This document shows, piece by piece, positions 19,475-63,977 of a stretch of 64,000 bases of DNA. The position numbers and the translations under genes were made by a program. Source of the stretch: Gammaproteobacteria bacterium. GTDB taxonomy: Bacteria; Pseudomonadota; Gammaproteobacteria; SZUA-229. Each line of letters opens with the position of its first letter. Position 1 is the stretch's first letter. The notes beneath the pieces are model-generated. The model was not told the DNA's origin. It saw nothing but the letters and a program-made list of their open reading frames with translations, and made no database searches. The stretch is from positions 64,565 through 128,564 of the forward strand of contig JAOUNI010000002.1 in the NCBI GenBank assembly GCA_029881035.1, given 5' to 3'.

Positions 19475-19499
19475 ACTAAAATATTCGACAATTAACCAC

Positions 19500-19527
19500 G
19501 CGTTCTTCTATTTGTTCAGAAGAACGC
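19500..19527. terminator. Bidirectional terminator hairpin GCGTTCTTC-N10-GAAGAACGC
   Basis: Perfect 9-bp stem between the convergent diaA and 19571-20434 genes. Confidence 0.6.
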
Positions 19528-19570
19528 ATGAATTAACTTTTCAAAATTTAACTCTTACCATTGCTGATAA

Positions 19571-20434
19571 TTACCAATATGGATAACCATAGTATCCGTT
19601 GGGCGCATTATTTGGGGCATAATAAGGGTTATTATTATAACCATATGGATTTACGGGCTGTGGTTGACCATTATAATTCCAACCCGAATTTTGCGCAGCC
19701 ATATTAACCGGCGCCTGATTGGGCTGCTGATAGCTATTAACTGGATAATTCATGTAACCAGGCATCTCACGCGCGCCGTTATACGGCATGTTAGCTGAAC
19801 GTTTAGCCCACTCCTGCTGATACCTCGCCTGCTCTTGCTGCATCAGTGTCTGTTGATCCTTAACCCATTGTGGTGGCTCTGATGCATTTCGATTTGCCTG
19901 ATAATTACCCGCATTCTGCTTTTCAAGCTCGGAGCGACGCTTATCCATTTGCGCCTGCCTGTCTTTGATCCATTGTGGCGGCTCGGATGAAGCTCTATTC
20001 GAGAGATAGTTACCCGCATTTAGTTTTTCAAATTCTACGCGACGCTTATCCATCTCTGCACGTTGCTGAGTCACCCACTCAGGTTGCTGAACACGATTTC
20101 CGTTAGCCATCGATGGCACCTGAAAATAATTTAAATTGGCATCAGCAACAATAGCAGATGAGGAATTATTGTCTGATGAGAGCAAAGAGTTTAATTGCTG
20201 TGGCATAACTATGTAAGCCACTATAGTAGCAGTAGGTATGGCCACAATTAATGCCATTAAGGCAGATGAGATTATATGTGATTCTGTTTTAGGGGTAGCT
20301 TCACTTACCGTAGATTTCTTATCTGATGACATCATTCCCATCGCCTTTAATTTATTCGCTATCTTCTTTGTTTTTTTCTTATCAATACTGTCACCATCTT
20401 CACTATTGGCCGTACTATCATTTTTAATAACCAT
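19571..20434 (-). CDS. Membrane-anchored repeat protein with an Asn/Tyr/Pro/Gln-rich prion-like C-terminus (last gene of the low-complexity cluster)
   Basis: 287 aa. One TM helix; three ~35-aa repeats (E)PPQW[VI]KD[RQ]QAQMDKRR.E.EK.NAGNY; C-terminal ~60 aa almost only N/Y/P/G/Q, ending YPYW. Confidence 0.6.
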   Translation of the reverse strand: MVIKNDSTANSEDGDSIDKKKTKKIANKLKAMGMMSSDKKSTVSEATPKTESHIISSALMALIVAIPTATIVAYIVMPQQLNSLLSSDNNSSSAIVADANLNYFQVPSMANGNRVQQPEWVTQQRAEMDKRRVEFEKLNAGNYLSNRASSEPPQWIKDRQAQMDKRRSELEKQNAGNYQANRNASEPPQWVKDQQTLMQQEQARYQQEWAKRSANMPYNGAREMPGYMNYPVNSYQQPNQAPVNMAAQNSGWNYNGQPQPVNPYGYNNNPYYAPNNAPNGYYGYPYW

Positions 20435-20467: not shown

Positions 20468-21031
20468 TTACCAGGGTGTGTACGAATTCATAAATTGCAT
20501 AGGTCTTGATACGCTGTTGTTGATCACCGCTATTTCATGACTCATTTGACCCGCTGATACACTCATACTTCTTACATAGCCATTCATTTCCTGTATCGTC
20601 AATGTTTGCCTTTCCATATTGATAACAACAGCCTGCATAGTACCGTTAATTGAATTCATTTCAGTAGCTATAGCGCCTACATCCTTGGTCAGACTATTAA
20701 TAAGAAAGAATCCATATATCGCTAAGACAATGAAAGCAAACATAGCAGGAAAAACAATCATTTCCCATCGACGTGTACTAGCGGTAAATGTTTTAGTTAA
20801 CTCATTCAGACTTTCACTTAAGACGTGTTCAACACTATCTTTTATCGTGTCATCATAATAACCAAACATAGATAACTTCTTGTCACAACGATTCGGCTCA
20901 TTAGGACATGTATCTGGGTCACCAGTACAGCCCTCTATTCCTGGCTCGCACTCGATTGATTCTATAATTACGTCTCTTACGTTCTTTTTCTTATGAGGGT
21001 GCGCATTTTTGTCGGACATTGTATTTACCAC
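20468..21031 (-). CDS. Hypothetical single-TM protein with a Cys-rich N-terminal region
   Basis: 187 aa. ECEPGIEGCTGDPDTCPNEPNRCDKK then a central TM helix; C-terminus ends ...YTPW. Confidence 0.55.
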   Translation of the reverse strand: MVNTMSDKNAHPHKKKNVRDVIIESIECEPGIEGCTGDPDTCPNEPNRCDKKLSMFGYYDDTIKDSVEHVLSESLNELTKTFTASTRRWEMIVFPAMFAFIVLAIYGFFLINSLTKDVGAIATEMNSINGTMQAVVINMERQTLTIQEMNGYVRSMSVSAGQMSHEIAVINNSVSRPMQFMNSYTPW

Positions 21032-21051: not shown

Positions 21052-21903
21052 TTACCCGGAAATCTTATTTCTGAGTTTTTCCGCACTGACCACATCAAGA
21101 CCCTGAATAACCCTCAACAAGTAATTGACCTGTTGCCCCATCTGTTCATTCTTATCTCGCTCCAATAAACGAACTGCCGCCTCATAATAAGCCTCAGCCG
21201 CCTGTTTCCATTTACCCTGAGCGTAATAAACATTACCCAATTCGCCATAAATATCCGGGTCACTATCATCAATATTAAGAAGATCTAGATAGCCTCTCTC
21301 AGAATCGTGTATCTCGCCTTTCCAGAATAACTGCCTTGCCATAAACAAACCTTGTTTTGCGTCAATAGATACGCTATCAGTTGCAGAAACACTGGTATTT
21401 TCCCTACTACTAATAACTAAATTATCAGTTTTTTGTTCCACCGAAACCAATACCTTATCCTTTTCATCATTGTTCGATGCAGGCTCAATAGCAAAAGATG
21501 CCTTATCTGCATCAAACAGCATATCAACTTTTTTGTTTATTGAGCTCACAGTTTCAGCCAACACCTCCATAATGGCCGCTGCCCCCTCGGTTTTCTCATC
21601 TGTAGCGATATCTTTACCTGACTCCATAGCCACTGACACTGTTTCTACATTGTCATCCTTTACGGCAACATTATCCACGATCGATTCGCATTCCTTTTGA
21701 ACAGCTACTTCTCCTTGAATATTCGCAGCCAAATATGATGGAATTGAAATTTTGAATTTTTCTTCCGCGTAAGAAAGTGCCGTATTAATATGCTGATTGA
21801 CGTTTGCATGAAATACTATTGAACGGAAATAAATTAATGCTGAAAATGCTAGCAGCAATACAACAAGTTTTATTGGTTTTATTAAAAATCTTAAGACCTT
21901 CAT
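21052..21903 (-). CDS. TPR-like repeat membrane protein
   Basis: 283 aa. N-terminal TM anchor, acidic/Ser-rich middle, C-terminal TPR-like helices (YGELGNVYYAQGKWKQAAEAYYEAAVRLL). Confidence 0.65.
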   Translation of the reverse strand: MKVLRFLIKPIKLVVLLLAFSALIYFRSIVFHANVNQHINTALSYAEEKFKISIPSYLAANIQGEVAVQKECESIVDNVAVKDDNVETVSVAMESGKDIATDEKTEGAAAIMEVLAETVSSINKKVDMLFDADKASFAIEPASNNDEKDKVLVSVEQKTDNLVISSRENTSVSATDSVSIDAKQGLFMARQLFWKGEIHDSERGYLDLLNIDDSDPDIYGELGNVYYAQGKWKQAAEAYYEAAVRLLERDKNEQMGQQVNYLLRVIQGLDVVSAEKLRNKISG

Positions 21904-21919
21904 TTTTTATGCCTCATAT

Positions 21920-22561
21920 CTAATTTATTAGATCTGGATATAGCGCATGCGCCAATTGATCAAATTCTTCTGCACTTTTACTCTTCCCTGAAAGCTCAAA
22001 TATTGAAAGCCCTTCACTTAAGGTACGCCTAAAACTCGTTCTCTGACATAGCCTGTATGGAATTACCCTGAATTTTTCCAGCATTTTTAGTGCCTGTTCT
22101 GCCTCATCGGATTCCCTCACGGCATGATGCGTATCAGCCCTGTTTATAAATGCAACTAATTCTGGATGATTATTATCACCACATGCATCATTAATTATTT
22201 TCAAAAATCTCTGCGTCGCCCATACATCAGGCTGGCTCGGTTGCACTGGAACAATAACTCGGTGAGCAATGCTTATAGCTGCTTTCATCGCATCCATATT
22301 AGCCGCACCCACATCTACTAAAACATGACACGAATGATTATTTAATGTCCCACAAATATCATTACTATCTGCAACACTTACTAACAGCTCAGGCTCAATA
22401 TCATCTTCTCTCCTAACCAATGCAACATCATGCAATGTTTGTTGAGGGTCAAGATCATAGGCAACCACGACTTCACCTTTCATCTTCAGCCAGATAGCAA
22501 GATTGAATGCAACCGTACTTTTGCCTGATCCACCTTTAAGATTTGCGATGACTGTTATCAT
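21920..22561 (-). CDS. Orphan ParA/MinD-like P-loop ATPase. The track ORF extends to 22597; the likely start is MITVIANLKGG
   Basis: Deviant Walker A IANLKGGSGKST with the signature Lys; ParA-type Walker A' and Walker B; no parB or parS nearby. Confidence 0.8.
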   Translation of the reverse strand: MITVIANLKGGSGKSTVAFNLAIWLKMKGEVVVAYDLDPQQTLHDVALVRREDDIEPELLVSVADSNDICGTLNNHSCHVLVDVGAANMDAMKAAISIAHRVIVPVQPSQPDVWATQRFLKIINDACGDNNHPELVAFINRADTHHAVRESDEAEQALKMLEKFRVIPYRLCQRTSFRRTLSEGLSIFELSGKSKSAEEFDQLAHALYPDLIN

Positions 22562-22568
22562 TCTGTAC

Positions 22569-23333
22569 TCACCTGTTAGTGTATTCAGGGCGAACATCTG
22601 GCTGAGATACTATTTTTGCGTAGTCTCCGGGGACACTGAATAAATCATCTGGCTGTTTGGAGACCACGATATTTTTTAGCTCTCTAATATAACCACCTGG
22701 CAACTCTTCTTTTATGGCGATTTTCAGGCCCGGGTCATACCATTGGTAAGATACTGCACTTTTTCCATCTGGACGACTCAACGTTCGCTGCCATTTTTCG
22801 GTATTTCGTCCATTTATTTTTTCCTTTTGTAACATCTTTAACTCTGCCACCGAACCATCTGGAAAAAATTCTCTTATCGCAAGTTTTCTTTTTATATCCA
22901 TCCAGTGAAGAGTCCGTAATTTTCTTCCTCTATTTTCAGAGATGATTTGCCATTTTTCTGTATCGTGTCCGTCGATGTTTTCATTACCCAATTTCTCACA
23001 TATTGCGTTTGATATTTGATCACATGGCGTATCATTATTTTTCTTATTATTTTGCCTATCAAACACTTTCTCCACATATGATTTCAATGGGTTGTTAATA
23101 AGGACTGCCCTACCCTCTTGCGGATAAACAATTTCGACAATCACTTGTTCGTTAACTACAGACTCATTTCTAACCGCTTTTTCACTCACAAATAATTTGG
23201 TCTGTCTCATGTTCTGTTGTGGCGCACTAATCACTGCATCTGCTGAAAACTCTACAATTTTTGGCTCAGCATATGTATTGCCGGTTATAAACACCGAACA
23301 AGCTATAACCAGGATTTTTCTCAGAGCACCCAT
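22569..23333 (-). CDS. Hypothetical secreted protein
   Basis: 254 aa; signal peptide MGALRKILVIACSVFITGNTYA; overlaps or abuts the ParA-like gene. Confidence 0.6.
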   Translation of the reverse strand: MGALRKILVIACSVFITGNTYAEPKIVEFSADAVISAPQQNMRQTKLFVSEKAVRNESVVNEQVIVEIVYPQEGRAVLINNPLKSYVEKVFDRQNNKKNNDTPCDQISNAICEKLGNENIDGHDTEKWQIISENRGRKLRTLHWMDIKRKLAIREFFPDGSVAELKMLQKEKINGRNTEKWQRTLSRPDGKSAVSYQWYDPGLKIAIKEELPGGYIRELKNIVVSKQPDDLFSVPGDYAKIVSQPDVRPEYTNR

Positions 23334-23412: not shown

Positions 23413-23865
23413 CTACTGAGCAGGTGCTGGTGCAGGTGCTGCTTGAGGAGCATAACCAGGACCATAATAACCAGGACCGGGGCCGTAACCATAACCAGGA
23501 CCAGGGCCATAACCGTAGCCATTGTTATAACCGTTATAGCCGTTATAGTTATTTCGACCGTAGTAGTCACCAGCACCATTACCATAACCACTACCACGAG
23601 CATTTGAGTTGCCACTCATGTTGAAGCCAAAATTGCCATCGCCAAGGAAATCGCCCATACCATTGCCATTACCCCAACCATTGCCATTATTACCCCAGTT
23701 GTTATTGTTGTTGCCCCAACCATTGTTATTATTATTCCAGGGACCCCACCAGGCATTTGCTGTCATAGGCGTAGCCAGAGCAGCTGCTACCGCTGCAACA
23801 CACAGTACTTTTTTCACGTTTTTCATAATATTTCTCCCCTTCTTCTGAAGGCTATTAAAAGACAC
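23413..23865 (-). CDS. Secreted extremely low-complexity Gly/Asn/Trp/Tyr-rich protein
   Basis: 150 aa. Signal peptide ..ATPMTANA, then WWGPWNNNNNGWGNNNNNWGNNGNGWGNGNG...NYNGYNGYNNGYGYGPGPGYGYGPGPGYYGPGYAPQAAPAPAPAQ. It has the same orientation as its neighbours, and the alternative-frame ORFs lack signal peptides. Confidence 0.6.
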   Translation of the reverse strand: MSFNSLQKKGRNIMKNVKKVLCVAAVAAALATPMTANAWWGPWNNNNNGWGNNNNNWGNNGNGWGNGNGMGDFLGDGNFGFNMSGNSNARGSGYGNGAGDYYGRNNYNGYNGYNNGYGYGPGPGYGYGPGPGYYGPGYAPQAAPAPAPAQ

Positions 23866-23958: not shown

Positions 23959-24582
23959 TTACCAGAACCTTGGCCTGGATAATAAACCTGTGTACGGATA
24001 AGAACCGCCAGGATAACCGCCATAACCTAGTCCGTTCGAAATTAAACCCGGATAGATTGATGGTGTAATTAATGGATTGTGATGCATCGTTCCTGGATAA
24101 CCATAAGCACCGCCTAAAGGTAGCAGTGATCTTCCGTAAGCAGTGAATGGATCAGCCGATACAAAATTATTACGATATGAGGAATCATTCTGATGACTCC
24201 ATTGTTTAAATCGCTGATCATGAAGCTTCATATTGTTTTTATTGCTCGGTTTCCGATCTGGAATATTTCCCCATGGCCGTTGACCAGAAAACGTTTTTTT
24301 AGAGTAAGTAGATTTAACTGCTTTCCATGGATTTTTGGTCGTTACCGGTGAATAACGAACTTTATTATCTTCATTAAAAGAGCGACCACTTCCCCATTGC
24401 TTTTCCCCGACACTATTCCGAAAATCAGGGTCAACAGAAGGTGGAGAAAAGTCTGAAAAACTTGATTTTGATACAAAATCTTCCTTCCACTCTGTTGCGC
24501 TCACTGGCTGAAGATAAAGACCACTATTAACAAGCAGCAATATAAGAATTTTATTCAAATAACTATTGTCAGCTATATTCAT
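23959..24582 (-). CDS. Secreted protein with a Gly/Tyr/Pro-rich C-terminal domain
   Basis: 207 aa. Signal peptide; C-terminus ...LPLGGAYGYPGTMHHNPLITPSIYPGLISNGLGYGGYPGGSYPYTGLLSRPRFW. Confidence 0.55.
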   Translation of the reverse strand: MNIADNSYLNKILILLLVNSGLYLQPVSATEWKEDFVSKSSFSDFSPPSVDPDFRNSVGEKQWGSGRSFNEDNKVRYSPVTTKNPWKAVKSTYSKKTFSGQRPWGNIPDRKPSNKNNMKLHDQRFKQWSHQNDSSYRNNFVSADPFTAYGRSLLPLGGAYGYPGTMHHNPLITPSIYPGLISNGLGYGGYPGGSYPYTGLLSRPRFW

Positions 24583-24657: not shown

Positions 24658-25146
24658 CTAGTACCGTTGCCCCTGATACATTGGTTGCTGATAATATTCT
24701 GGCGGCACAGCACCAGGACCGTAAACCGGGCCACGTGCAGAAGGGAAAGGTTGCTGAAATCTATTATCTTGAACGCCGGGAGCACGACCTGAATAAGTAT
24801 TTGGCGCTGGTTGCATTTGATTATAATTCCATTGTGGCTGTTGATTTGGCCGATTCTGAGATTGCATATTTGATTGTTTCATTCGTTGCTCCATCTGAGC
24901 CTGGCGTTGTTTCACCCAATCTGGCACCTCACTGTTTAACTGGTTGGATTGTGCAGAGGGATGCCCATAATTTTTTCTCATATGCGAACAATTTTGAACG
25001 CTCTGATCTGAAGTATATTGATCAGTATCATCAACTGATTTATATGGGCCAGGAGGTGGCATCACATTCTCATAGCTTCCAGCAAAAACTGAATGATTTA
25101 TTGCCATTGTCATAGCAGTCATTAATACTAATATTGTTGTTTTCAT
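24658..25146 (-). CDS. Secreted Gln/Asn/Pro-rich low-complexity protein sharing the PxWVKQRQAQME motif with 19571-20434
   Basis: 162 aa. Signal peptide ..SVFAG; PDWVKQRQAQMEQRMKQSNMQSQNRPNQQPQWNYNQMQPAPN...; 24 bp downstream of the RND gene stop. Confidence 0.55.
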   Translation of the reverse strand: MKTTILVLMTAMTMAINHSVFAGSYENVMPPPGPYKSVDDTDQYTSDQSVQNCSHMRKNYGHPSAQSNQLNSEVPDWVKQRQAQMEQRMKQSNMQSQNRPNQQPQWNYNQMQPAPNTYSGRAPGVQDNRFQQPFPSARGPVYGPGAVPPEYYQQPMYQGQRY

Positions 25147-25170: not shown

Positions 25171-28100
25171 TTATTCTGTTTCCAATCCAGGATTAAGACG
25201 GATTCCTCGTCTTTTCTTCTTCGTTGCAATCTTTTTTTCACTTACGATAACTGTATTTTTTTTATCTTCTGATGACTCACTGATGGATGCGATTTTTTTC
25301 CCAGGTGCTGACTTTTTTTTCACCGCAGTCGCAGCTTTCTCAGCTGCTACTTTCTTCTGTGCTGCAGTCTTCTTTTTCACCACCGGCCTCGATACTTTGG
25401 CGTCACCTACTTTTTCCTGAACCACCTCATTGTTGACAGCCTGATTCTGGTCACTAGTTTGAGTTTGTGAGGAACTTTGATTCACATCTCCATCATTGCC
25501 TGAAACTACCGATGAAGAAACTGGGGCGGGCGTGGGATTACCTCCTGATGAGCCTGAGCCGCCACCATCTGGTGAACTCGGACCGGAACCACCTGAGTCA
25601 CTACTGAATCGTGCAAGCAAACTCTGTATACCCATGCGAACCATCATGACAATCATGCGGCCAATATAGAAAGCCCATGTCACCGCATTAATTAACTGCA
25701 TCCAGATTCTTAACCATAAAGGTAACTGATAAGCCGGAGCTTCAGGCTCACTTACTTTAACTTTAATAGCGGGATTTTCCATGCCTGCCAGCAAATAGAA
25801 CTGCTTGCTGACACTTATACAACCCAACGGAATCACTACCAGAGTTAACACCGTGGCGACACCCGCACCATATAACAGACTGACGGCCATGCCCTTGAAA
25901 ATCAAATCATCAAGAATCATATAGGCACCTGCCATCAACGTTAGCGCCGTGATCAGGATAGGACGCATACGTGCTTTACCTGCCAGCACCACTGCCTCCT
26001 TAATATCCACGCCATTGGCCACCTCATGCTTGACGAACTCAACCAGCAAAATGGAATTTCGCACCACGATCCCTGCCAGCGCGATAAAACCAATCATAGA
26101 TGTGGCAGTAAATTCCGCATTCGCAAACCAGTGCCCAGGAATAATCCCAATGAGCGTCAACGGGATAGGTGCCATAATCAAACCACCGAGAGTAAAATTC
26201 TTGAACTCCCAGACGATCAGTCCATAAATCAGCAACATGGCCGCCATAAATGCGCCGCCCATATCCCTGAATGTTTCATAGGTCACGGTCCATTCACCGC
26301 CCCACTCAAAACCGCTTTCGAAACTATCATCCGGCGGTCCTAACAAACCCATTGGCATGCCAGTCATGGTGACACCGTCAGGTGTCACATAATTTTCGAG
26401 AATATCTTCCACATCAAACATGCCATAAATTGGCGCACCAAGACGTCCTTGCATTTCACCCGTAACGTATTCAACATCACGCAAATCTTTGTGATAAACA
26501 AGCTGGTCCTGTTCTTCTTTGATAAAACGACCTAGCTCAGAAAGCGGCACAGTTTCACCATTAACACCAGTAATTGGCAAATTACCCAGGCGGTTAATTT
26601 GTGAACGCACTCCCATAGGCGCCTGAATCACAATATAAGTTGGTTCCAGTACTACCCCTTTTTTCACATCACCTAGTTTGTAGCCACCCATAACCATAGC
26701 CAGGTTACGATTTATCGCGTCAACAGAAATACCGCGTCGTACTGCTTTTTCAGTATCCACCTCAAAACGCCAGTAATCGTGCGGCGTCGCCATATAATTA
26801 TCAACGTCAACAATACCTTCAGCTTCCCTGAAAATTTCAGTCATATCGCGAGCAACCTGACGACGCGTCTCTGCATCAGGTCCATATATTTCAGCAACCA
26901 CTGTCTGTAATACAGGCGGGCCTGGCGGCATTTCAATAACCTGAATATCAGCGCCTAAACTGTCAGCCATATCTTTTATCAACTCACGTGCATTAACCGC
27001 AATTTCATGACTCGCGCGTTCTCGATCTTCCTTATCAAGCAGCATGACCTGGATGTCAGCTTGCCAAGGCTCCTGCCTTAAATAGTAATGGCGCACCATA
27101 CCATTGAAATTAAACGGAGAGGCCGTGCCTACATAGGTTTGAATTGATGTCACTTCTGGTAATTCACGAAGTTTTGCCGCGAGCTGCGTAGTCACATTAG
27201 CCGTAACTGGCATTGCTGTTCCGTCAGGCATATTGATCACAATATTAAACTCAGGCTTGTTATCAAAAGGCAACATCTTTACAGTAACTGCCTGGGTGTA
27301 AAACAATGAACAAGCAATAAATGTTGCCGCAATTAATAAAAACAGAAACATCAAACCCAATGCCCTGTTATTACATAATGGATTCATGCAAGGGTCATAA
27401 AATTTACCAATCCATGCTGTAATTTTTTCCTCTCGCCTTTCTGCCTTTTCCAGTGCGCCTAACTGTGGACGAACCCGCATTGCAAACCAGGGCACAAAAA
27501 TAAATGCTGCAAATAATGAAAGCATCATAGCGGCCGAACCTAGCACCGGGATGGGTCTCATGTAAGGCCCCATCAAACCACTAACAAAACCCATTGCCAA
27601 TAAAGCAGCGACAATAGCCAATGTTGCCAGGATGGTTGGATTGCCAACCTCTCGCACCGCATCAATAGCAATATTGGTGGTTGTCTTTCCTGCCTTTAAC
27701 CATCGCCTGAAAATATTTTCGACTACCACGGTGGCATCATCGACCAGAATACCGATGGTAAAGACCATGGCAAATAAACTCACACGGTCAATGGTGTAAT
27801 CAAGAAACCACGCCGACCACACCGTCATTAAAATGACCAGTGGTATGATAAAAATGACCACCGATGCAGCACGAAGTCCCAGGCCAATTAAACATAAAAT
27901 ACTGACAGCGACCGTGGCTTCAAATAATGCTATCAGTAACTCATTAACCTTATCGTTGGCTGTTTTCCCGTAATTACGCGTAATGCTAACCTGAACATTA
28001 TCAGGGATAAGATGACCTTTTAAGGATTCAAGTTTTTCCAGCAACTGATTTGCAACTGACACACCATTAGAACCAATTTTCTTTGCCACTGCGATAGTGA

Positions 28101-29098: not shown

Positions 29099-30415
29099 TT
29101 ATTTAGAGAAATCAGGCGTCCAGCCTGATCGAATACCCGGCGATGGTGAAGCAAAAATTTGCTCCCCAGGGCTAATACCAGATAATACAGCGACATTTTC
29201 ATTATCAACTTCATCACCCAGTCGTACTAGTCGCATCTCGGCACGACCCTCGTGATTAAGTACGAATACAGCTGGTAAACTGCCACGCCGAACAATGGCG
29301 GAGGAAGGAATAATTGGCATATCGGCAATAGGTGTGTTCACATCAGGGATCATTACTTCAGCATACATACCTGGACCACCCGGCACGCCCTCAGGTAAAT
29401 CAAATTTCACAACCACAGTGTGTCTCTGTGAATCCGCGACAGGAAAAATTTGCGCTACGCGCACATCAATGTAAGTATCACCCACGTCCAATTTTGCAGG
29501 CACGACCATATCTTCACTCAGTGCCGACACCAGTCTGGCAGGCACATCAACCTTGAGCTGCAGAAAACGGATATCCGCAAATTGCAATAAAGCCTGGCCA
29601 GGCTGAACCGTGTCGCCGACTTCTGCAACTTTCTTCACAATAACGCCTTCAAATGGCGAAATAGCCCGTGTATCACGTAAGCGCGCATCTATTTCATCAA
29701 TACGCGAACGTGCACCGTGAATTCCACTTTGCGCCTGATCGACGTGCGTACCCTGAGAGTACAGATCCACATCACGGACCACCCATGGATTCAAGCCGTT
29801 ATATGATGGATAACCGCCTGAGGATGGGCCGCCACCAAAACCCATAAATTTTTCAAACATGGAAGGGAAGTACCCCATGCTTGGTGCAGTTTGCTGCTGT
29901 TGCTGCTGCAAAGCCTGTGGCGCCCAGAACTCCCTGGAATATTGAGCTCGTGCATCCTGTAATGTTGATGACCTGCCATAAAGGTCAGCCATTGCCTGTT
30001 GCCGCTGCGCAAGCACATCGTCATCATCAATAGCGACCAGAATCTGGCCTTCGTCAAACCATTCACCTTCACTACCTGCAATAAACTCAACCCGTCCTGG
30101 AGTCTGAGCAGTTAAGGTCACTTCTCTATAAGGCTTAACAGTACCGCCCAATACTACATGTGCACCTGTTTTTGCATTGGTGACAGTGATAATGGATCCA
30201 TGCTGCTTACCACCACGCTGTACAGTCGGGTAGAAAACTTTGCCTGACGTATGCGCCGACTGATTACTGTTATCTGTCCGATAATAGGCTTTTTCGGCCT
30301 GCAACTGAAAAGATATTATTAATGATACTGCGAGCAATAATCGGCTTAATAAATAAGCACTATCTGCCGGCCGCGTAGTAAACCACTGGTTGTTACGCAT
30401 TACTGCTTTCCCCAC
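29099..30415 (-). CDS. RND efflux membrane fusion (periplasmic adaptor) protein with a Gln6/Gly/Tyr/Ser/Pro-rich insertion
   Basis: 438 aa. N-terminal anchor; biotinyl/lipoyl-like and beta-barrel MFP domains; ~45-aa insertion QQQQQQTAPSMGYFPSMFEKFMGFGGGPSSGGYPSYNGLNPW. Confidence 0.85.
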   Translation of the reverse strand: MGKAVMRNNQWFTTRPADSAYLLSRLLLAVSLIISFQLQAEKAYYRTDNSNQSAHTSGKVFYPTVQRGGKQHGSIITVTNAKTGAHVVLGGTVKPYREVTLTAQTPGRVEFIAGSEGEWFDEGQILVAIDDDDVLAQRQQAMADLYGRSSTLQDARAQYSREFWAPQALQQQQQQTAPSMGYFPSMFEKFMGFGGGPSSGGYPSYNGLNPWVVRDVDLYSQGTHVDQAQSGIHGARSRIDEIDARLRDTRAISPFEGVIVKKVAEVGDTVQPGQALLQFADIRFLQLKVDVPARLVSALSEDMVVPAKLDVGDTYIDVRVAQIFPVADSQRHTVVVKFDLPEGVPGGPGMYAEVMIPDVNTPIADMPIIPSSAIVRRGSLPAVFVLNHEGRAEMRLVRLGDEVDNENVAVLSGISPGEQIFASPSPGIRSGWTPDFSK

Positions 30416-30449: not shown

Positions 30450-30836
30450 CTAGATTTTTGCCATGACAGCAAAACTTTTGATGAAGGGTCCGGCCATACG
30501 AGGATCTTTAATCATAGCGCCATAATCTCCAACTAAAAATTTCAGCTTACCTGTGGTATAGGCCATACCTAACCCCATCATCCCCGGTGGACTCTTCACC
30601 CATTTACCCCAATGCTCATTGGATGCACGTAAGTCCCAGTTCAACGTCTCACCGTTATACTCACCAGCTGAAACCACATGACCGTTTTCAACAGTAATAA
30701 CACCTACAGGCTTTTCTTCACCTGTGAAGCCATAAGCAATTACAGAGTTAAAATTTATCTGTTTAAGTGCATCTGCCAATCCAGGTTCAGCATTCCAGGC
30801 ATTCTGAAACTTCTTCATCCAGTCTTCTTTAAACAT
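30450..30836 (-). CDS. SCP2 (sterol carrier protein 2)-like lipid-binding domain protein; first gene of the RND operon
   Basis: 128 aa, WMKKFQNAWNAEPGLADALK...GKLKF...AMAKI; SCP-2 sterol-transfer fold signature; 34 bp upstream of the MFP gene. Confidence 0.7.
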   Translation of the reverse strand: MFKEDWMKKFQNAWNAEPGLADALKQINFNSVIAYGFTGEEKPVGVITVENGHVVSAGEYNGETLNWDLRASNEHWGKWVKSPPGMMGLGMAYTTGKLKFLVGDYGAMIKDPRMAGPFIKSFAVMAKI

Positions 30837-30879
30837 TTTTTATTTCTCCAAAATAATTTAACGACCCATATCTGACATA

Positions 30880-30895
30880 GCAAGAGTTATGCCAA
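30880..30895 (-). promoter_or_regulatory. Sigma-54 (-24/-12) promoter TGGCAT-N5-TTGC on the - strand, upstream of the SCP2-MFP-RND operon
   Basis: The reverse complement of GCAAGAGTTATGCCAA is TTGGCATAACTCTTGC, matching the TGGCAC-N5-TTGCW consensus with GG/GC correctly spaced. It sits about 45 bp upstream of the SCP2 start, with a divergent sigma-54 activator gene. Confidence 0.55.
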
Positions 30896-31094: not shown

Positions 31095-32444
31095 ATGCAG
31101 CCCAGTGAACCCAACTTTGCCCTGTTACTGGAAAACATTGTTTCATTCATCGATGAAGGTGTCATAGTAACTGATAATCTAGGTAACGTTCTATACCATA
31201 ACCCAGCAGTATTTAAATTACTCGGCATTGAACCCAACAAACCGATCAATAAACTACACGACATAGGTAAGTTTAATTTACAGAAAGCTATCTTACGTGC
31301 CGCTATCGACGCGGGTGAAACCGATGCTGCCGGTAAACCCAGTGACAACTTTATTAGCTTCGAACAACAATTTCATCATGATGGCTGCAATCGACTGGTC
31401 GAAATTATTAGTCGCCTGATTACCAGCCCTGATCACAAAGAGAAAAACCGCCTCATACTGTTCAGAGATCGAACAGACGCACGGCATATGGAAGCCGTGC
31501 TCAATCCCATGGGCAAACAGATGAGCAGCCAGGATCCACGCATGCTGGAAATTATTGATCGCATCTATCAAATTGCCCCAACTAATGCTTTTATCCTGCT
31601 ACAAGGGGAGTCTGGCACAGGTAAAACACAATTGGGACGATTGATCCATACTCAAAGCAGTCGATCAAAAGAGGCATTTGTGGAAGTGAACTGTGCAGCT
31701 ATACCAGAAACCCTGATTGAATCTGAATTATTCGGCCATGTTAAGGGGGCATTTACCGGTGCCAGTAGAGGTCGCCCAGGAAGGTTTCAGAGCGCACACA
31801 AAGGCACATTATTTCTTGATGAAGTTGGAGAGATCCCCCTGCATCTACAGGCAAAACTATTACGAGCCATTCAGGATCAGGAGTTCGAAATGGTGGGCTC
31901 AGATAAGCCCGTACGCGTTGACGTACGTATTATAGCCGCCTCCAACAAAAATCTAAGACAGATGGTAGATAAGGGCAAGTTCCGCGCCGACCTATTTTAT
32001 AGACTGGCCGTTATCCCCATAACCATACCTTCACTTAAAGAAAGACCAGGCGATATTATATTATTATCCAAACACTTCTGCGCCCAGTTAGTGGCCAGAG
32101 GTTACCCTGCCAACATTACTTGTAGCGACGAAGCCACTCGTATGATGATGGATTACCCCTGGCCCGGGAACGTACGTGAGCTTGAAAATGCGGTAGAACA
32201 TGGTCTAATTTGTGCCATCGATGGCCAGGTAAGAACTGAAAGCCTGCCTCAGGATATACGTGAACATAGCCTTAAGCTGAACAAGCCGATTCATGACGCT
32301 GAAGACAATGCAATTCAACATGCCTTCGAAATAGAATCTACATTAAAACAGGTTAATGGCAATAAAGCCGAAGCGGCAAAGGTACTGGGCGTAAACCGCA
32401 CCACACTATGGCGGTGGATACAAAAATACGGCATTGAAATATAA
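31095..32444 (+). CDS. Sigma-54-dependent Fis-family transcriptional activator with an N-terminal PAS-like sensor domain
   Basis: 449 aa. AAA+ sigma-54 interaction domain (GESGTGKT, GAFTGA, ESELFGH), C-terminal HTH (RTTLWRWIQKYGI). Confidence 0.9.
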   Translation: MQPSEPNFALLLENIVSFIDEGVIVTDNLGNVLYHNPAVFKLLGIEPNKPINKLHDIGKFNLQKAILRAAIDAGETDAAGKPSDNFISFEQQFHHDGCNRLVEIISRLITSPDHKEKNRLILFRDRTDARHMEAVLNPMGKQMSSQDPRMLEIIDRIYQIAPTNAFILLQGESGTGKTQLGRLIHTQSSRSKEAFVEVNCAAIPETLIESELFGHVKGAFTGASRGRPGRFQSAHKGTLFLDEVGEIPLHLQAKLLRAIQDQEFEMVGSDKPVRVDVRIIAASNKNLRQMVDKGKFRADLFYRLAVIPITIPSLKERPGDIILLSKHFCAQLVARGYPANITCSDEATRMMMDYPWPGNVRELENAVEHGLICAIDGQVRTESLPQDIREHSLKLNKPIHDAEDNAIQHAFEIESTLKQVNGNKAEAAKVLGVNRTTLWRWIQKYGIEI

Positions 32445-59975: not shown

Positions 59976-62900
59976 ATGCTACCCAAAATGCGCTATCGCT
60001 TAGGTCTCGATATTGGGACAACATCAATCGGCTGGTGCCTGATCAGGCTAAACAAATCGGAAGAACCCATCGCCATTATCCGCATGGGCACAAGAATTTT
60101 CTCAGATAGCCGCAATCCCAAAGACGGCAGCTCACTTGCGGTCACACGTAGAGAAGCCAGACAGGCAAGGCGGCGACGTGATCGCCTACTCAAGCGTAAA
60201 CAAAGAATGCTGAATGCGCTAATTAATCACCAGTTCTTCCCGCAGGAAGAAAATAAAAGGCAGGCACTGGTCAATCTAGACCCCTATGCCCTACGTAAAA
60301 AGGGCCTGTATCAGACACTTACTGGAGAAGAATTTGCACGCGCACTATTCCACATCAACCAGCGACGGGGTTTCCTGAGTAACCGCAAAACCGACAAAAA
60401 TGACAATGAAAGTGGTGCACTTAAATCTGCCATCAAAACACTAAGAGAAAAGCTTATCCAGGAAGACTGCAAGACACTGGGAGAATGGCTGGCAAACCGA
60501 CATGAAAAAGGGGAAAGTGTTCGTGCTCGACTACATGGCAAAACCCAAAAAGACCGGGCTTATGATTTCTATGCTGATCGCGCCATGGTTGAACATGAAT
60601 TTAATGAGCTCTGGTCTAAACAATCCAGCTTTAATCCTTCGCTGTTCAATGAAAAAGCGAAAGAGGAACTCAAAGACATACTGTTATTTCAACGACCACT
60701 CAAACCTGTCAAACCGGGGCGCTGCACCCTGTTGCCTGAAGAAGAACGCGCCCCCCTGGCTTTACCAAGCACTCAGCGATTCCGTATTTACCAGGAGGTG
60801 AACAACCTGCGCATCATCACAGGCGAACTAAAAGAGCAACCTTTGACACTGGAGCAACGTGATGCCGTTGTTGAGCTTCTCGAACAAGGTGATGCCACAT
60901 TCAAAACAAAAATCAAAAAGGCACTTAATTTATCTGGCACAGTAGAATTCAATCTTGAGGATATTAAGCGAGACAGGCTAAAAGGAAACAGAACCTCTAT
61001 CATCCTTTCCAGGAAAGAATTATTTAGCAAGCAGTGGCATACCTTTACCCATGATCAGCAGGACGAAATTGTAGACCATTTATTACACGAAGAAAGCCTG
61101 GGAAAACTGGTCGATTGGTTGTGCAAGAAAACAAACATCGATGAAAGCACAGCCGAACTTATTGCTAACACCAATCTGCCAGAAGGCTATGGCAGTCTCA
61201 GCAAAAAAGCACTGAATCACATACTACCTGAATTAGAAAAAGACGTTATTCCCTACTCTACTGCAGTTGAAAAAGCAGGCTTTGAAAGCCATAGCGCACT
61301 TTCTCATGCACACCAGACAGGGGAAATTATGGAACAACTCCCCTACTACGGTATCCCTTTGCGACGACATGTCGCCTTTGAAAAAGACGAACCAAAAAAT
61401 GATGAAGAACGCTATGGAAAAATTGCCAACCCTACGGTTCATATCGGGCTAAATGAAATACGAAAAGTCGTCAATGCGATCATCAAACGCTATGGGCACC
61501 CAAGCGAAATAATTGTTGAGGTCACCCGCGAATTAAAATTAAATCGTGAAAGAAAAAATGAAATTCAGCGGGAACAAAAACTAAACCAGGATCGCAATGA
61601 AGAAAATATCAAGGAAGCCTGTATAGCACTAGGACTAAACCCTAACAATCTGGACAAATCCAAACGACGCGAGCTCTCGCAAAAAATGCAGCTATGGAAA
61701 GAACTCAATCCGAAAGATGCTGCAAACCGTCGATGCCCATACTCAGGCGAGCAAATCAGCATTAACAAACTACTTTCCAGTGAAATTGAAATTGAGCACA
61801 TTTTGCCTTACTCAATAACGCTCGATGATAGTTTAAACAACAAAACAGTATCAACGCGTCGTGCCAATCGGGACAAGGGTAACAAAACACCTTATGACGC
61901 ATTTGGCAAACAGGCATTAGAGGGTTACGACTACAATCTCATTCTCGAGCGTGCGGCACTCATGCCTAAAGCAAAATCTAAACGATTTACCACCGATGGA
62001 TACCAGCAATGGCTCCGTAACGATAAAGATTTTCTTGCCAGGGCGCTCAATGACACCGCTTATCTTTCACGAATCGCAAAAGAGTATTTATCGTGTGTTT
62101 GCCCACCAAATATGGTGCGTGCAATCCCCGGAAGAATGACTGCACTCTTGCGCGGAAAATATGGCCTTAATGACCTTCTATCTAACGATGACCATAAAAA
62201 CAGGGACGACCACAGACATCATGCTGTTGATGCTGCTGTAGTCGCCATCACCGACCAGGGACTGTTACAAAGGTTTTCCAAAGCCAGTGCTTACGCCAGA
62301 CAACATCAACTCAATAAGCTTGTCGACGAGATGCCATACCCATGGCCGACATTTCGGGCAGATGTTCAGCGCGGTTTAAATAATATTTATGTCAGCCACA
62401 AACCTGATCATGGCTATCAGGGCGCCATGCACGAGGCATCCGCCTGGGGCATAAACAAAGAAGGGATGGCCACTCGAAGCGTGAAACCCGAGGACGGAAG
62501 CATAAAGCAGCGCGAAACCAAAAATCAAAAGCTGGTCATGATCAATAGTTCAAACAATAAGACACGCCATGATCTCAATGAAGATGGCGAAACAAAGGCC
62601 TACAAGGGCTATGTCGGCGGCAGTAACTACTGCCTTGAAATCTTGCGTGACGAAAAAGGCAAATGGAATGGCGATGTTGTCTCCACCTTCCAGGCCTACC
62701 AGATCATTCGTGAAATGGGTGAAGACAATGGGTTCAGGCAACTAAGAAACCCATTAACCAGCCAAGCCGGCAATCCCCTTGTTATGCGACTCATGATTAA
62801 CGATTACGTCAGGTTAAATGTTGGTGATACCACTAGAACTATGCGCGTAGCCAAAATAAGTGGCAATGGTCAGATCTTTCTGAGCGAACACAATGAAGCC

Positions 62901-63041
62901 AATGTCGATGCACGTAACCGAGACAAGAACGAACCATTTTCCTACATCTCCAAGATGGCTGGCTCACTACAAAAAGCCAAGGGGCGCCGTGTAACTGTGT
63001 CAGAGATAGGCGAACTCCGAGACCCCGGCTATAAGAGTTGA
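59976..63041 (+). CDS. cas9: CRISPR-associated endonuclease Cas9, compact type II-C
   Basis: 1021 aa. RuvC-I LGLDIGTTSIGW; Arg-rich bridge helix RREARQARRRRDRLLKRKQR; HNH EIEHILPYS...D..N; RuvC-III HHAVDAAVVAIT; AGGAGG RBS 8 nt upstream. Confidence 0.95.
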   Translation: MLPKMRYRLGLDIGTTSIGWCLIRLNKSEEPIAIIRMGTRIFSDSRNPKDGSSLAVTRREARQARRRRDRLLKRKQRMLNALINHQFFPQEENKRQALVNLDPYALRKKGLYQTLTGEEFARALFHINQRRGFLSNRKTDKNDNESGALKSAIKTLREKLIQEDCKTLGEWLANRHEKGESVRARLHGKTQKDRAYDFYADRAMVEHEFNELWSKQSSFNPSLFNEKAKEELKDILLFQRPLKPVKPGRCTLLPEEERAPLALPSTQRFRIYQEVNNLRIITGELKEQPLTLEQRDAVVELLEQGDATFKTKIKKALNLSGTVEFNLEDIKRDRLKGNRTSIILSRKELFSKQWHTFTHDQQDEIVDHLLHEESLGKLVDWLCKKTNIDESTAELIANTNLPEGYGSLSKKALNHILPELEKDVIPYSTAVEKAGFESHSALSHAHQTGEIMEQLPYYGIPLRRHVAFEKDEPKNDEERYGKIANPTVHIGLNEIRKVVNAIIKRYGHPSEIIVEVTRELKLNRERKNEIQREQKLNQDRNEENIKEACIALGLNPNNLDKSKRRELSQKMQLWKELNPKDAANRRCPYSGEQISINKLLSSEIEIEHILPYSITLDDSLNNKTVSTRRANRDKGNKTPYDAFGKQALEGYDYNLILERAALMPKAKSKRFTTDGYQQWLRNDKDFLARALNDTAYLSRIAKEYLSCVCPPNMVRAIPGRMTALLRGKYGLNDLLSNDDHKNRDDHRHHAVDAAVVAITDQGLLQRFSKASAYARQHQLNKLVDEMPYPWPTFRADVQRGLNNIYVSHKPDHGYQGAMHEASAWGINKEGMATRSVKPEDGSIKQRETKNQKLVMINSSNNKTRHDLNEDGETKAYKGYVGGSNYCLEILRDEKGKWNGDVVSTFQAYQIIREMGEDNGFRQLRNPLTSQAGNPLVMRLMINDYVRLNVGDTTRTMRVAKISGNGQIFLSEHNEANVDARNRDKNEPFSYISKMAGSLQKAKGRRVTVSEIGELRDPGYKS

Positions 63042-63044
63042 TCC

Positions 63045-63977
63045 ATGATCGGACGAATCATCGAAGTGGCTGATGACAAACGCTATATGTTTGTCTCACG
63101 AGGTTTTCTGGTCGTTCAGGATACTGATGGCGAAAGAAAAGAGCTAGGCCAGATCCCACTGGATGACATAACAGCAGTTATAGCCAATGCACATGGTCTT
63201 AGTTACTCCAATAATCTTCTGGTTGCACTGGCAGAACGTGGCGCACCCTTTGTTCTCTGTGCCGCTAATCACAATGCCGTGGGCATGCTATGGCCGGTTG
63301 ACGGTCATTACCAGCAGGCCAAACGCTTTGATGCGCAGATCGCTGCAAAAAAACCAACTAACAAACGTATCTGGTCAGAACTGATTAAATCAAAAATTCA
63401 GCAACAGGCGGCCGCGCTAGATGCAGCAGGTCAGGCGTCAGTACCCGTAGCCGTACTGGTCAATAAAATACGCTCGGGAGACCCAAACAATATTGAAGCG
63501 CAGGCGGCCAGACGCTACTGGTCACTACTATTTGGCAAGACATTTCGTCGCGACAAAAATGCCAGCGGCATTAACGGGCTGCTGAATTATGGCTACACTA
63601 TTTACCGCGCCGCAACCGCACGCGCCATCATCGCCGCCGGGTTACACCCTACTATTGGCGTACATCATTCCAATGAAGGCAACCCGATGCGCCTGGTCGA
63701 TGATTTAATGGAGCCATTCCGTCCTCTCGTCGATTTACTTGTCTGGCAAATGAGTAATGCAGGCAAAGAGCAGGTGACCGCAGAAACCAAACGAATCCTC
63801 GTGCGCTCGCTTTACGATGACATGCAAACCAGTTCAGGCACAACACCCACAACAGTATGCATGCAGCGCCTTGCTATATCCCTCGCCCAGATTTATCTTG
63901 GTGAGCGAGAAGAACTCGATTTACCCTATCCTGCCTTACCATTAACACTTGCGGCTAGCCTGTCTGATGACTGGTGA
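63045..63977 (+). CDS. cas1: CRISPR-associated endonuclease Cas1 (type II)
   Basis: 310 aa; resembles type II-C Cas1 (..PLDDITAVI.., LLVALAERGAPFVLC, GYTIYRAATARAII); starts 4 bp after the cas9 stop. Confidence 0.95.
   Translation: MIGRIIEVADDKRYMFVSRGFLVVQDTDGERKELGQIPLDDITAVIANAHGLSYSNNLLVALAERGAPFVLCAANHNAVGMLWPVDGHYQQAKRFDAQIAAKKPTNKRIWSELIKSKIQQQAAALDAAGQASVPVAVLVNKIRSGDPNNIEAQAARRYWSLLFGKTFRRDKNASGINGLLNYGYTIYRAATARAIIAAGLHPTIGVHHSNEGNPMRLVDDLMEPFRPLVDLLVWQMSNAGKEQVTAETKRILVRSLYDDMQTSSGTTPTTVCMQRLAISLAQIYLGEREELDLPYPALPLTLAASLSDDW

Follow-up and report, generated by a model that had tools for sequence, protein, structure and literature searches.

For periplasmic sulfur globules, the literature consulted characterises the structural Sgp proteins of a single purple sulfur bacterium (PMC10386293). 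SgpD (Alvin_2515) of Allochromatium vinosum, the most abundant globule protein, is a Sec-exported, repetitive protein residing on the periplasmic sulfur globules which combines two confidently predicted helices with a low-complexity, Pro-rich chain of low confidence, and whose gene adjoins those of a hydrophobe/amphiphile (HAE, RND) exporter and of a transcriptional regulator (PMC10386293). In the literature we found no description of how zero-valent sulfur enters such globules or of how their envelope is assembled and anchored. Here, we analyse a 64-kb stretch of DNA (contig JAOUNI010000002.1, referred to as the window) from an uncultured marine gammaproteobacterium in which eleven minus-strand genes follow each other in a row (30836 to 19571). 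The open reading frame (ORF) at its end, 19571-20434, encodes a membrane protein of 287 amino acids (aa) with three tandem copies of a unit designated PxWVK, a further copy of which recurs in a presumably secreted Q/N-rich protein of 162 aa encoded by ORF 24658-25146 of the same row. With a probability of roughly 0.4 we propose that these two proteins are docking-helix components, the one membrane-anchored and the other soluble, of a sulfur-globule-like periplasmic matrix.

The 162-aa protein resembles SgpD in its general build and in its gene neighbours. However, no sequence relationship to SgpD was detected as judged by the names and taxa of the 51 motif matches and 37 family matches described below, SgpD is reported to be almost confined to Chromatiaceae, and sgpD forms a separate transcription unit whereas the motif genes belong to an operon of eleven. 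With regard to SgpA, SgpB and SgpC (SGP, PF17228), the likeness consists in a neighbouring gene of SGP type and in the Gly/Tyr/Pro-rich tails of the motif proteins. In contrast, the SGP model yields no match at E<=0.1 in the 287-aa or the 162-aa protein, SGPs do not possess a PxWVK helix, and in A. vinosum the genes encoding SGPs occur singly and dispersed (PMC10386293).

The PxWVK helix and the two proteins carrying it

The 287-aa protein starts with a Lys-rich cytoplasmic N-terminus harbouring a conserved KLKxMGVM motif, which is followed by one transmembrane helix, three PxWVK units and a tail (the coordinates of all features are compiled in Table 1). Its sole hydrophobic segment, for which a helix is predicted, is read as the membrane anchor. 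The P-x-W-[VI] signature recurs at residues 118, 153 and 188, in units of 35 residues with the core P-x-W-V-K-x-[QR]-[QR]-A-x-M-E-K, the third unit being the best conserved one among homologues. The AlphaFold2 model calculated with the family alignment has a mean predicted local distance difference test score (pLDDT) of 55.9, with the helices of the three units reaching values of about 87 to 94. Every one of these helices begins one residue after a proline, linkers of 7 to 8 residues separate them, and the last 70 residues of the protein, whose richest 40-residue stretch consists to 85% of G/Y/P/N/Q, are disordered in the model.

The N-terminus of the 162-aa protein, MKTTILVLMTAMTMAINHSVFA, displays a typical n-h-c pattern and is predicted to be helical at residues 2-17. 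An invariant PPPGPY near the N-terminus is succeeded by one PxWVK unit, whose motif copy VPDWVKQRQAQMEQRMKQ is located at residue 75, by a conserved FPSARGPVYGPG and by the end ..QRY. The only helix predicted within the mature protein coincides with the motif and reaches a pLDDT of about 70. The remainder of the mature parts of both motif proteins stays below 50-60. The length of the predicted helices is about 26-28 residues for the 287-aa protein as opposed to about 20 for the 162-aa protein. In these predictions the motif P-[EQ]-W-V-K-x-[QR]-[QR]-A-x-M-E-K constitutes the conserved core at the N-terminal end of a highly polar α-helix capped by proline.

In a set of 201 distinct units the information content is highest for W1 (4.3 bits) and P-1 (3.7), followed by A7 and V2 (3.2 each), Q/R6 (3.0), Q/R5 (2.9) and M9 (2.8), and falls off after about residue 13. 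Conservation therefore extends over the first 12-13 helix residues, i.e. the first three turns, and includes every face of the helix, which would fit a specific contact site. The heptad pattern of the unit comprises one hydrophobic position (V2, M9, F/Y16) and a stripe of alanines (A7, A14, A21), with Q, R or E occupying positions 5/6, 12/13 and 19. For the four units of the window we calculated hydrophobic moments of 0.07-0.24 and mean hydrophobicities of -0.36 to -0.69. An amphipathic, surface-coating helix of the phasin or apolipoprotein type, facing lipid or sulfur, was considered and rejected since such a moment is too low for it.

The composition of both proteins is biased, so that the similarity might be imagined to be a chance resemblance of two low-complexity, Q/E/K/R-rich sequences. 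We attach next to no probability to this. BLASTP with composition adjustment aligns the two proteins over the motif with E=5e-7. From 62 units of the 287-aa family alone we derived a hidden Markov model (HMM) and used it to search every ORF of 60 aa or more in the window and 24 related loci (the latter, like single proteins below, are denoted by L and P numbers where they need to be told apart). At E<0.01 it matches only the orthologues of both genes and a few positional equivalents, namely at the position of the Q/N-rich gene in L018 and L021 and at that of the 287-aa gene in L021. For the copy borne by the window's own 162-aa protein the model returns E=9e-8. Upon alignment of the two families by hhalign, a probability of 91% (E=1e-6) results for 16 columns (PEWVxQxRAEMEKRR versus vPeWvrQRQaQMxQxm), while nothing is aligned outside of these. 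In addition, the motif is placed alike in 31 of 34 relatives of the 162-aa protein, and a search of 1.84e9 proteins returned just 51 matches. On account of the BLASTP score, the specificity of the HMM and the hhalign result, chance similarity is excluded, and the motif is best described as a homologous module within two otherwise unrelated proteins.

Recent gene conversion between the two genes was rejected because their units share only 41-45% nucleotide identity; even the nearest two units inside the 287-aa gene are no more than 60% identical. Neither are copy numbers matched across genomes, the ratios of the 287-aa to the 162-aa gene being 3/1 in the window, 4/3 in L003, 2/3 in L016 and 2/5 in L021. 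The initial annotation of this DNA had quoted the three tandem units and the single distant copy exactly as they are present, and had considered them a paralogous module spread through the cluster. The former part of this statement holds insofar as one helix motif is common to two operon gene families and conserved among their orthologues. The latter has to be withdrawn, as the HMM search of the window did not reveal any further operon protein with the motif. The possibility, also raised there, of a chance match lacking conservation among orthologues is at variance with its retention in the relatives mentioned and with an E-P-P-Q-W-V-K which is near-invariant across the alignment of 24 homologues of the 287-aa protein.

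Distribution of the module and of the operon

A profile of 26 units was searched against 1.84 billion representative proteins at a threshold of E<=1e-3 and turned out to define a small family of 51 proteins. In each of the 51 the repeats, 1 to 9 in number, are preceded by either a signal peptide or a transmembrane anchor and succeeded by a tail rich in P/Y/G; we infer that the units reside outside the cytoplasm. Four builds can be distinguished. (i) The cytoplasmic KLKxMGVM is followed by a transmembrane helix, 2-6 units and an N/Q/P/Y tail ending in ..GYR or ..YPYR. (ii) A signal peptide precedes PPPGPY, 1-9 units and a P/Y/G tail ending in ..PRY, ..VWR or ..WNR[PR], with short forms retaining ..RGPVYGPG... 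(iii) An HHH_5 domain is followed by a transmembrane helix, 3-5 units and a YG/P tail; this build is encoded by a stand-alone gene which adjoins a cell-wall hydrolase gene (L027). (iv) A signal peptide, 4 units and a G/Y-rich stretch lead to an OmpA_C peptidoglycan-binding domain (P0183, RLJ20468.1). The source of build (iv) is the endosymbiont of the tubeworm Escarpia laminata; such endosymbionts are sulfur oxidisers. Scanning both motif proteins against Pfam and NCBIfam gave nothing above noise (DUF3431, RNase Y, DNAPKcs_CC3), and Foldseek found a single and meaningless PDB match for the model of the 287-aa protein (E=4.4). The module is an undescribed, presumably extracytoplasmic helix repeat which is absent from domain databases and whose members are annotated as hypothetical.

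For the 287-aa protein 24 homologues are detectable, all of them from metagenomes or gammaproteobacterial metagenome-assembled genomes (MAGs). The window's own protein was not among the first family matches, its 90% cluster being represented by a 90-aa fragment. Units 1 and 3 are present in all orthologues, with the middle unit being kept, lost or multiplied. Out of 37 relatives found for the 162-aa protein, 34 were examined for the motif; in the full-length ones (30 of 30) it is situated at residues 61-80, mostly at about 75, and some relatives possess 2-4 copies. A distant counterpart of 370 aa (L025, 4462-5574) exhibits other repeats in place of the PxWVK units, that is, three units based on QKQWQA(Y)QEAM(Q/K)KRQ(A/E)EAQK and six copies of QQPPQRPDWAQR, and ends in ..GPRW.

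The operon comprises, in the order of its genes, an SCP-2-like protein, a periplasmic adaptor (MFP), an HAE-type RND permease, the 162-aa Q/N-rich protein, a W-ended 207-aa protein, an SGP-type protein, a DUF4412 protein, a ParA-like ATPase, a TPR protein, a 187-aa membrane protein and the 287-aa protein. This order recurs in about 25 loci of uncultured Gammaproteobacteria, with L001, L003-L005 and 19 loci from GTDB species-representative genomes showing a like arrangement as far as their contigs reach. Distant versions (L025, L029, L030) either include an additional dynamin-like GTPase or miss the TPR and 287-aa genes. The Dynamin_N gene, which is missing from the lineage of the window, stands between the 187-aa gene and the 287-aa equivalent (L025, 10587-12074; L030, 10741-12264; also L018, L021 and L023). 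Since the flanks differ in L003 and L025, the cluster travels as a unit. All carriers are uncultured gammaproteobacteria, one being labelled Thiotrichaceae, and the DNA of the window belongs to an NCBI MAG (locus tags from OEY66_01235 on). Directly downstream of the cluster in L025 (12816-17060) lie genes for DUF302, OsmC, Sulf_transp, a 68-aa ORF, DUF6969 and a rhodanese, the sole sulfur-related neighbourhood seen.

Three of the eleven operon proteins end in tryptophan (..YPYW, ..YTPW and ..RPRFW), as had been pointed out initially together with a possible role of this residue in sorting, assembly or partner recognition. At the tryptophan frequency of the window (0.96%) the binomial probability of such an accumulation is about 1.4e-4. 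For two of the proteins this feature proves to be conserved: of 120 members of the 187-aa family, 109 terminate with PW and 8 more with PWQ, and at 17 of 21 loci, the window being counted, W is the last residue of the 207-aa protein, which terminates with WR in L019, L020 and L029. For the 287-aa protein the proposal fails, as 22 of 24 family members end in arginine and the terminal tryptophan is shared only with L008 and P0170, which marks it, by this alignment, as a lineage oddity. A C-terminal recognition role thus appears plausible for the 187-aa and 207-aa proteins. An arginine paired with an aromatic residue ends four operon proteins at their periplasmic C-termini (..RFW, ..QRY/..PRY, ..PYR in homologues, ..VWR in relatives), which hints at a common C-terminal feature wider than tryptophan alone.

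A proposed sulfur-globule-like matrix and alternative functions

The proposal of a sulfur-globule-like matrix derives from the SGP-type neighbour, the G/Y/P/N/Q-rich segments of the operon proteins, the sulfur genes of L025 and the parallels to SgpD. The six segments richest in these residues among the 58 ORFs of the window all fall into the operon, one of them being an insertion of the MFP. Within orthologues of the 137-aa SGP-type protein the SGP model reaches 29.9 bits (E=1e-6) in L003 and E<=0.01 in 9 of 18, with no competing family. Periplasmic location, structural role, sulfur link and docking function of the motif proteins are thereby suggested rather than observed. As we envisage it, the product of the last gene would be an N-in anchor which exposes three helices and a tail to the periplasm and ties the structure to the inner membrane, and the 162-aa protein would be a soluble, almost fully disordered matrix component with one helix. 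Together with the SGP-family neighbour and the W-ended protein they would constitute the matrix, most likely a sulfur globule envelope. The PxWVK helices might serve as docking units which either self-associate or bind one common partner, while the Tyr/Pro/Gly tails could mesh with the SGP layer. The variable number of units would set valency or reach instead of a fixed fold, and the PW/W C-termini of the 187-aa and 207-aa proteins would represent a separate conserved feature of the same assembly.

Several observations weigh against this proposal. The SGP model scores the window's own 137-aa protein at 20.1-20.5 bits, under the cut-off of 26.7, the 64-kb window does not contain any sulfur-oxidation gene, and no SgpD-named or Chromatiaceae protein occurs among the 51 motif and 37 family matches. 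The helix of the unit is, by its hydrophobic moment, too polar for a hydrophobic sulfur surface. A classical coiled coil, which needs hydrophobic residues at both a and d, has to be rejected as only one heptad position is hydrophobic, and no partner was found for the PxWVK helices. Two of the motif architectures are encoded by stand-alone genes without any such operon. Cultured carriers were not encountered, a genome scan with peptide patterns of the 187-aa protein, which would miss divergent versions such as L025, having returned uncultured MAGs only. Finally, lineages devoid of the 287-aa gene (L019, L022, L029) keep the motif in their secreted protein, and the distant L025 equivalent of the 287-aa protein does not contain it. 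Hence, strict pairing of the two proteins cannot be the whole function; self-association of the helices, or their binding to a common partner, is more likely.

An alternative which we consider doubtful is that the polar helices merely form a length-setting rod in the manner of TolA domain II or Lpp, which keeps the membrane protein distant from the cell wall or outer membrane and has no specific link to sulfur, the shared motif being a mere helix cap. In proteins of the TolA/TonB type, a membrane anchor at the N-terminus precedes an extended region, helical or rich in Pro, in the periplasm, and the 287-aa protein shares this architecture of anchor and periplasmic reach. Its N-in anchor, helices and tail, the polar E/K/R/Q-rich composition with its low hydrophobic moment, the freely varying copy number, the OmpA_C fusion of P0183 and the HHH_5 relative encoded next to the cell-wall hydrolase gene would all be in accordance with a spacer. 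However, a pure spacer does not require a near-invariant P-x-W-V-K..A.M core on every helix face, the short linkers would interrupt the rod, the secreted 162-aa protein offers a single helix anchored at neither end, and the tight, conserved linkage to an SGP-type gene would be left unexplained. Compared to TolA and TonB, the 287-aa protein shows neither a globular C-terminal domain nor sequence similarity, TolQR or ExbBD are not encoded in the operon, and the 162-aa protein is not anchored.

A secreted adhesive or biofilm matrix, amyloid-like or Tyr-rich, in which the motif would act as a chaperone- or export-recognition helix, appears improbable to us. Disordered Q/N- and Tyr-rich sequences with signal-like N-terminal segments and an efflux-type pump encoded in the same operon would suit it; yet RND pumps are not known to export proteins, an outer-membrane secretion component is present neither in nor beside the cluster at any locus, and the inner membrane holds one of the motif proteins by an anchor. 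Moreover, a structure within the periplasm is indicated by the SGP-type neighbour (PMC10386293). Even less probability is assigned to soft-metal handling, in which Cu(I)/Ag(I)-type efflux would be combined with buffering by disordered sponges resembling SilE/PcoE, the motif Trp and Met and the Met-rich 187-aa protein providing the ligands. Among the side chains of the unit, W1 and M9 are the best conserved, and of the 74 periplasmic residues of the 187-aa protein 8 are Met, spaced roughly as heptads. The matches of the MFP to CusB/CzcB-type models are weak, and some relatives of the secreted protein have an M/Q/P-rich composition. SilE and PcoE are small, secreted, disordered proteins with Met-containing helix-forming motifs encoded beside an RND pump. 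The motif proteins, in contrast, lack His/Met ligand clusters: the 210 residues of the periplasmic part of the 287-aa protein include no His and no Cys, 2 His and 1 Cys occur in the 162-aa protein after maturation, and inspection of the motif sequences by eye, without a pattern search, made no MxxM or HxxM clusters evident. Furthermore, the permease is of AcrB type with its DD motif and scores 393 and 319 bits with general RND models versus 256 bits with that of CusA/CzcA, the operon comprises neither CusF nor an outer-membrane factor nor a CusRS-type regulator, and genes for ParA, TPR and SGP-type proteins or, at other loci, for dynamin do not belong to metal operons. The remaining operon content is unrelated to such systems.

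Returning to the sulfur-globule-like matrix, the operon as a whole is undescribed, conserved and probably related to sulfur-globule envelopes. A more far-reaching version, which we regard as rather unlikely in its entirety, is that of a dedicated, sigma-54-controlled builder of a periplasmic sulfur store made up of four parts, i.e. pump, coat, tethers and ParA/dynamin. The AcrB-type RND permease and its adaptor, perhaps with the SCP-2-like protein, would move zero-valent sulfur from the membrane into a coated globule whose coat would consist of the SGP-type, the W-ended and the Q/N-rich proteins. The 287-aa and 187-aa proteins would tether the globule via PxWVK helices and PW C-termini, and the cytoplasmic ParA-type ATPase, joined by the dynamin-like GTPase in sister lineages, would position or remodel it across the membrane. 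The operon supplies a list of candidates (an SGP-type gene, three disordered partners, the RND pump, the ParA-type ATPase and two putative membrane tethers), and the PxWVK helix with its 13 conserved residues, joining an anchored and a soluble component, offers a compact handle for mutagenesis. Should the sulfur link fail, there would still be a periplasmic repeat module and a conserved envelope operon, both of them new, from widespread Gammaproteobacteria of sediments and vents.

Genes and control signals of the operon

Table 1. Features of the operon and of its two motif proteins within the 64-kb window.
Feature	Position	Strand	Basis or remark
287-aa bitopic membrane protein	19571..20434	-	NCBI MDH5611066.1, OEY66_01235, name "hypothetical"
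Sole hydrophobic segment, residues 53-79	20198..20278	-	Kyte-Doolittle scan; AlphaFold2 helix 52-76
Repeat unit 1, residues 113-147, NRVQQPEWVTQQRAEMDKRRVEFEKLNAGNYLSNR	19994..20098	-	predicted helix 119-146
Repeat unit 2, residues 148-182, ASSEPPQWIKDRQAQMDKRRSELEKQNAGNYQANR	19889..19993	-	predicted helix 154-180
Repeat unit 3, residues 183-217, NASEPPQWVKDQQTLMQQEQARYQQEWAKRSANMP	19784..19888	-	predicted helix 189-214
DNA-level duplication, period 105 bp, 77% matches	19865..20053		Tandem Repeats Finder
Disordered tail, residues 218-287, N/Q/P/Y/G-rich, ends YPYW	19574..19783	-	AlphaFold2, composition
Terminal W codon (TGG) of the 287-aa protein	19574..19576	-
162-aa Q/N/P-rich protein, identical to P0194, OEY66_01270	24658..25146	-	hydrophobic signal-like N-terminal segment
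Shared unit in 162-aa protein, residues 70-104	24835..24939	-	BLASTP, HMM, AlphaFold2, hhalign
Predicted helix of mature 162-aa protein, residues 76-95	24862..24921	-	AlphaFold2
128-aa first gene	30450..30836	-	NCBI name "SCP-2 sterol transfer family protein"
RND periplasmic adaptor (MFP)	29099..30415	-	Pfam/NCBIfam; Q6 and G/Y/P-rich insertion
RND permease, 1293 aa	25171..29052	-	AcrB-type "VDDATVVVEN" in transmembrane helix (TM) 4; conserved ~200-aa C-terminal extension
RND C-terminal extension, residues ~1090-1293	25171..25800	-
207-aa protein, OEY66_01265	23959..24582	-	signal-like N-terminal segment; G/Y/P-rich C-terminal part; end ..SRPRFW
137-aa G/N/Y/W-rich SGP-type protein	23413..23826	-	signal-like hydrophobic N-terminus; Pfam SGP PF17228
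DUF4412 protein, 254 aa	22569..23333	-	Pfam 37.8 bits, cut-off 21.6; NCBI name
ParA/MinD-type P-loop ATPase	21920..22597	-	Pfam CbiA, AAA_31, MipZ
283-aa protein	21052..21903	-	hydrophobic N-terminal anchor; weak C-terminal TPR match
183/187-aa bitopic membrane protein	20468..21031	-	likely start = ATG at 21019
Sigma-54-type promoter match, TGGCATAACTCTTGCT	30879..30894	-	sole exact TGGYAYN5TTGCW match in 64 kb
Sigma-54 enhancer-binding protein, divergent	31095..32444	+	arrangement alike in L029
Terminator-like hairpin, 15-bp stem, directly 3' of last gene	19496..19531	-

The promoter match precedes the first gene by 42 bp, and in L010 and L019 the same pattern stands ahead of the cluster. All window products that were looked up are named "hypothetical" by NCBI with the exception of the SCP-2 and DUF4412 proteins. 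The product of the first gene (30450-30836) does not match any Pfam family at E<=0.1, searches of PDB sequences with it and with the DUF4412 protein produced chance matches only, and no literature on the cluster or on DUF4412 was found. A lipid- or hydrophobe-carrier fold of the SCP-2 kind beside an RND pump may hint at the substrate of the latter.

The insertion of the adaptor (..GGGPSSGGYPSYNG.. at residues ~170-210) has the composition of the tails of the secreted operon proteins. As regards the permease, the score of 393 bits is that of RND_permease_2 and the score of 319 bits that of a second model, both being general models of multidrug-efflux RND permeases. A heavy-metal efflux RND (CusA/CzcA, TIGR00914) was rejected on the grounds of the lower score given above and of the VDDATVVVEN in TM4, which we take to be an AcrB-type motif. 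Its best PDB relatives are MexK and an uncharacterised "probable RND efflux transporter" (6vej). The C-terminal extension introduces an additional hydrophobic segment (residues 1120-1138) after TM12. Beyond this segment the chain is first rich in G/S/P and later in Lys/Ala, and its end, KKRRGIRLNPGLETE, is kept in all four other loci compared. The ParA-type ATPase reaches 134 bits with the NCBIfam model ParA_partition, under the cut-off of 180.

The N-terminal domain of the 187-aa protein carries four invariant cysteines (CEPGxxGCTxxPxxCPNxPxxC) and is followed by one transmembrane helix and a C-terminal part with invariant methionines at about heptad spacing. Its family counts 2677 detectable members, the 120 listed ones all stemming from metagenomes or MAGs. 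With one transmembrane helix preceding a heptad-patterned helical region the protein resembles DUF948/YoxC, and many members of its family have a precomputed match to PF06103 (DUF948). Nevertheless, membership was rejected for the protein of the window, which scores 18.6 bits versus a gathering cut-off of 37.2; moreover, the match spans residues 98-175 only and leaves the four-Cys domain and the PW end outside the model.

Apart from the operon, the window encodes a type II Cas9 of 1021 aa at 59976-63041 on the plus strand (HNH_4, RuvC_III, Cas9_a), directly followed by an ORF of 310 aa (63045-63977, plus strand).

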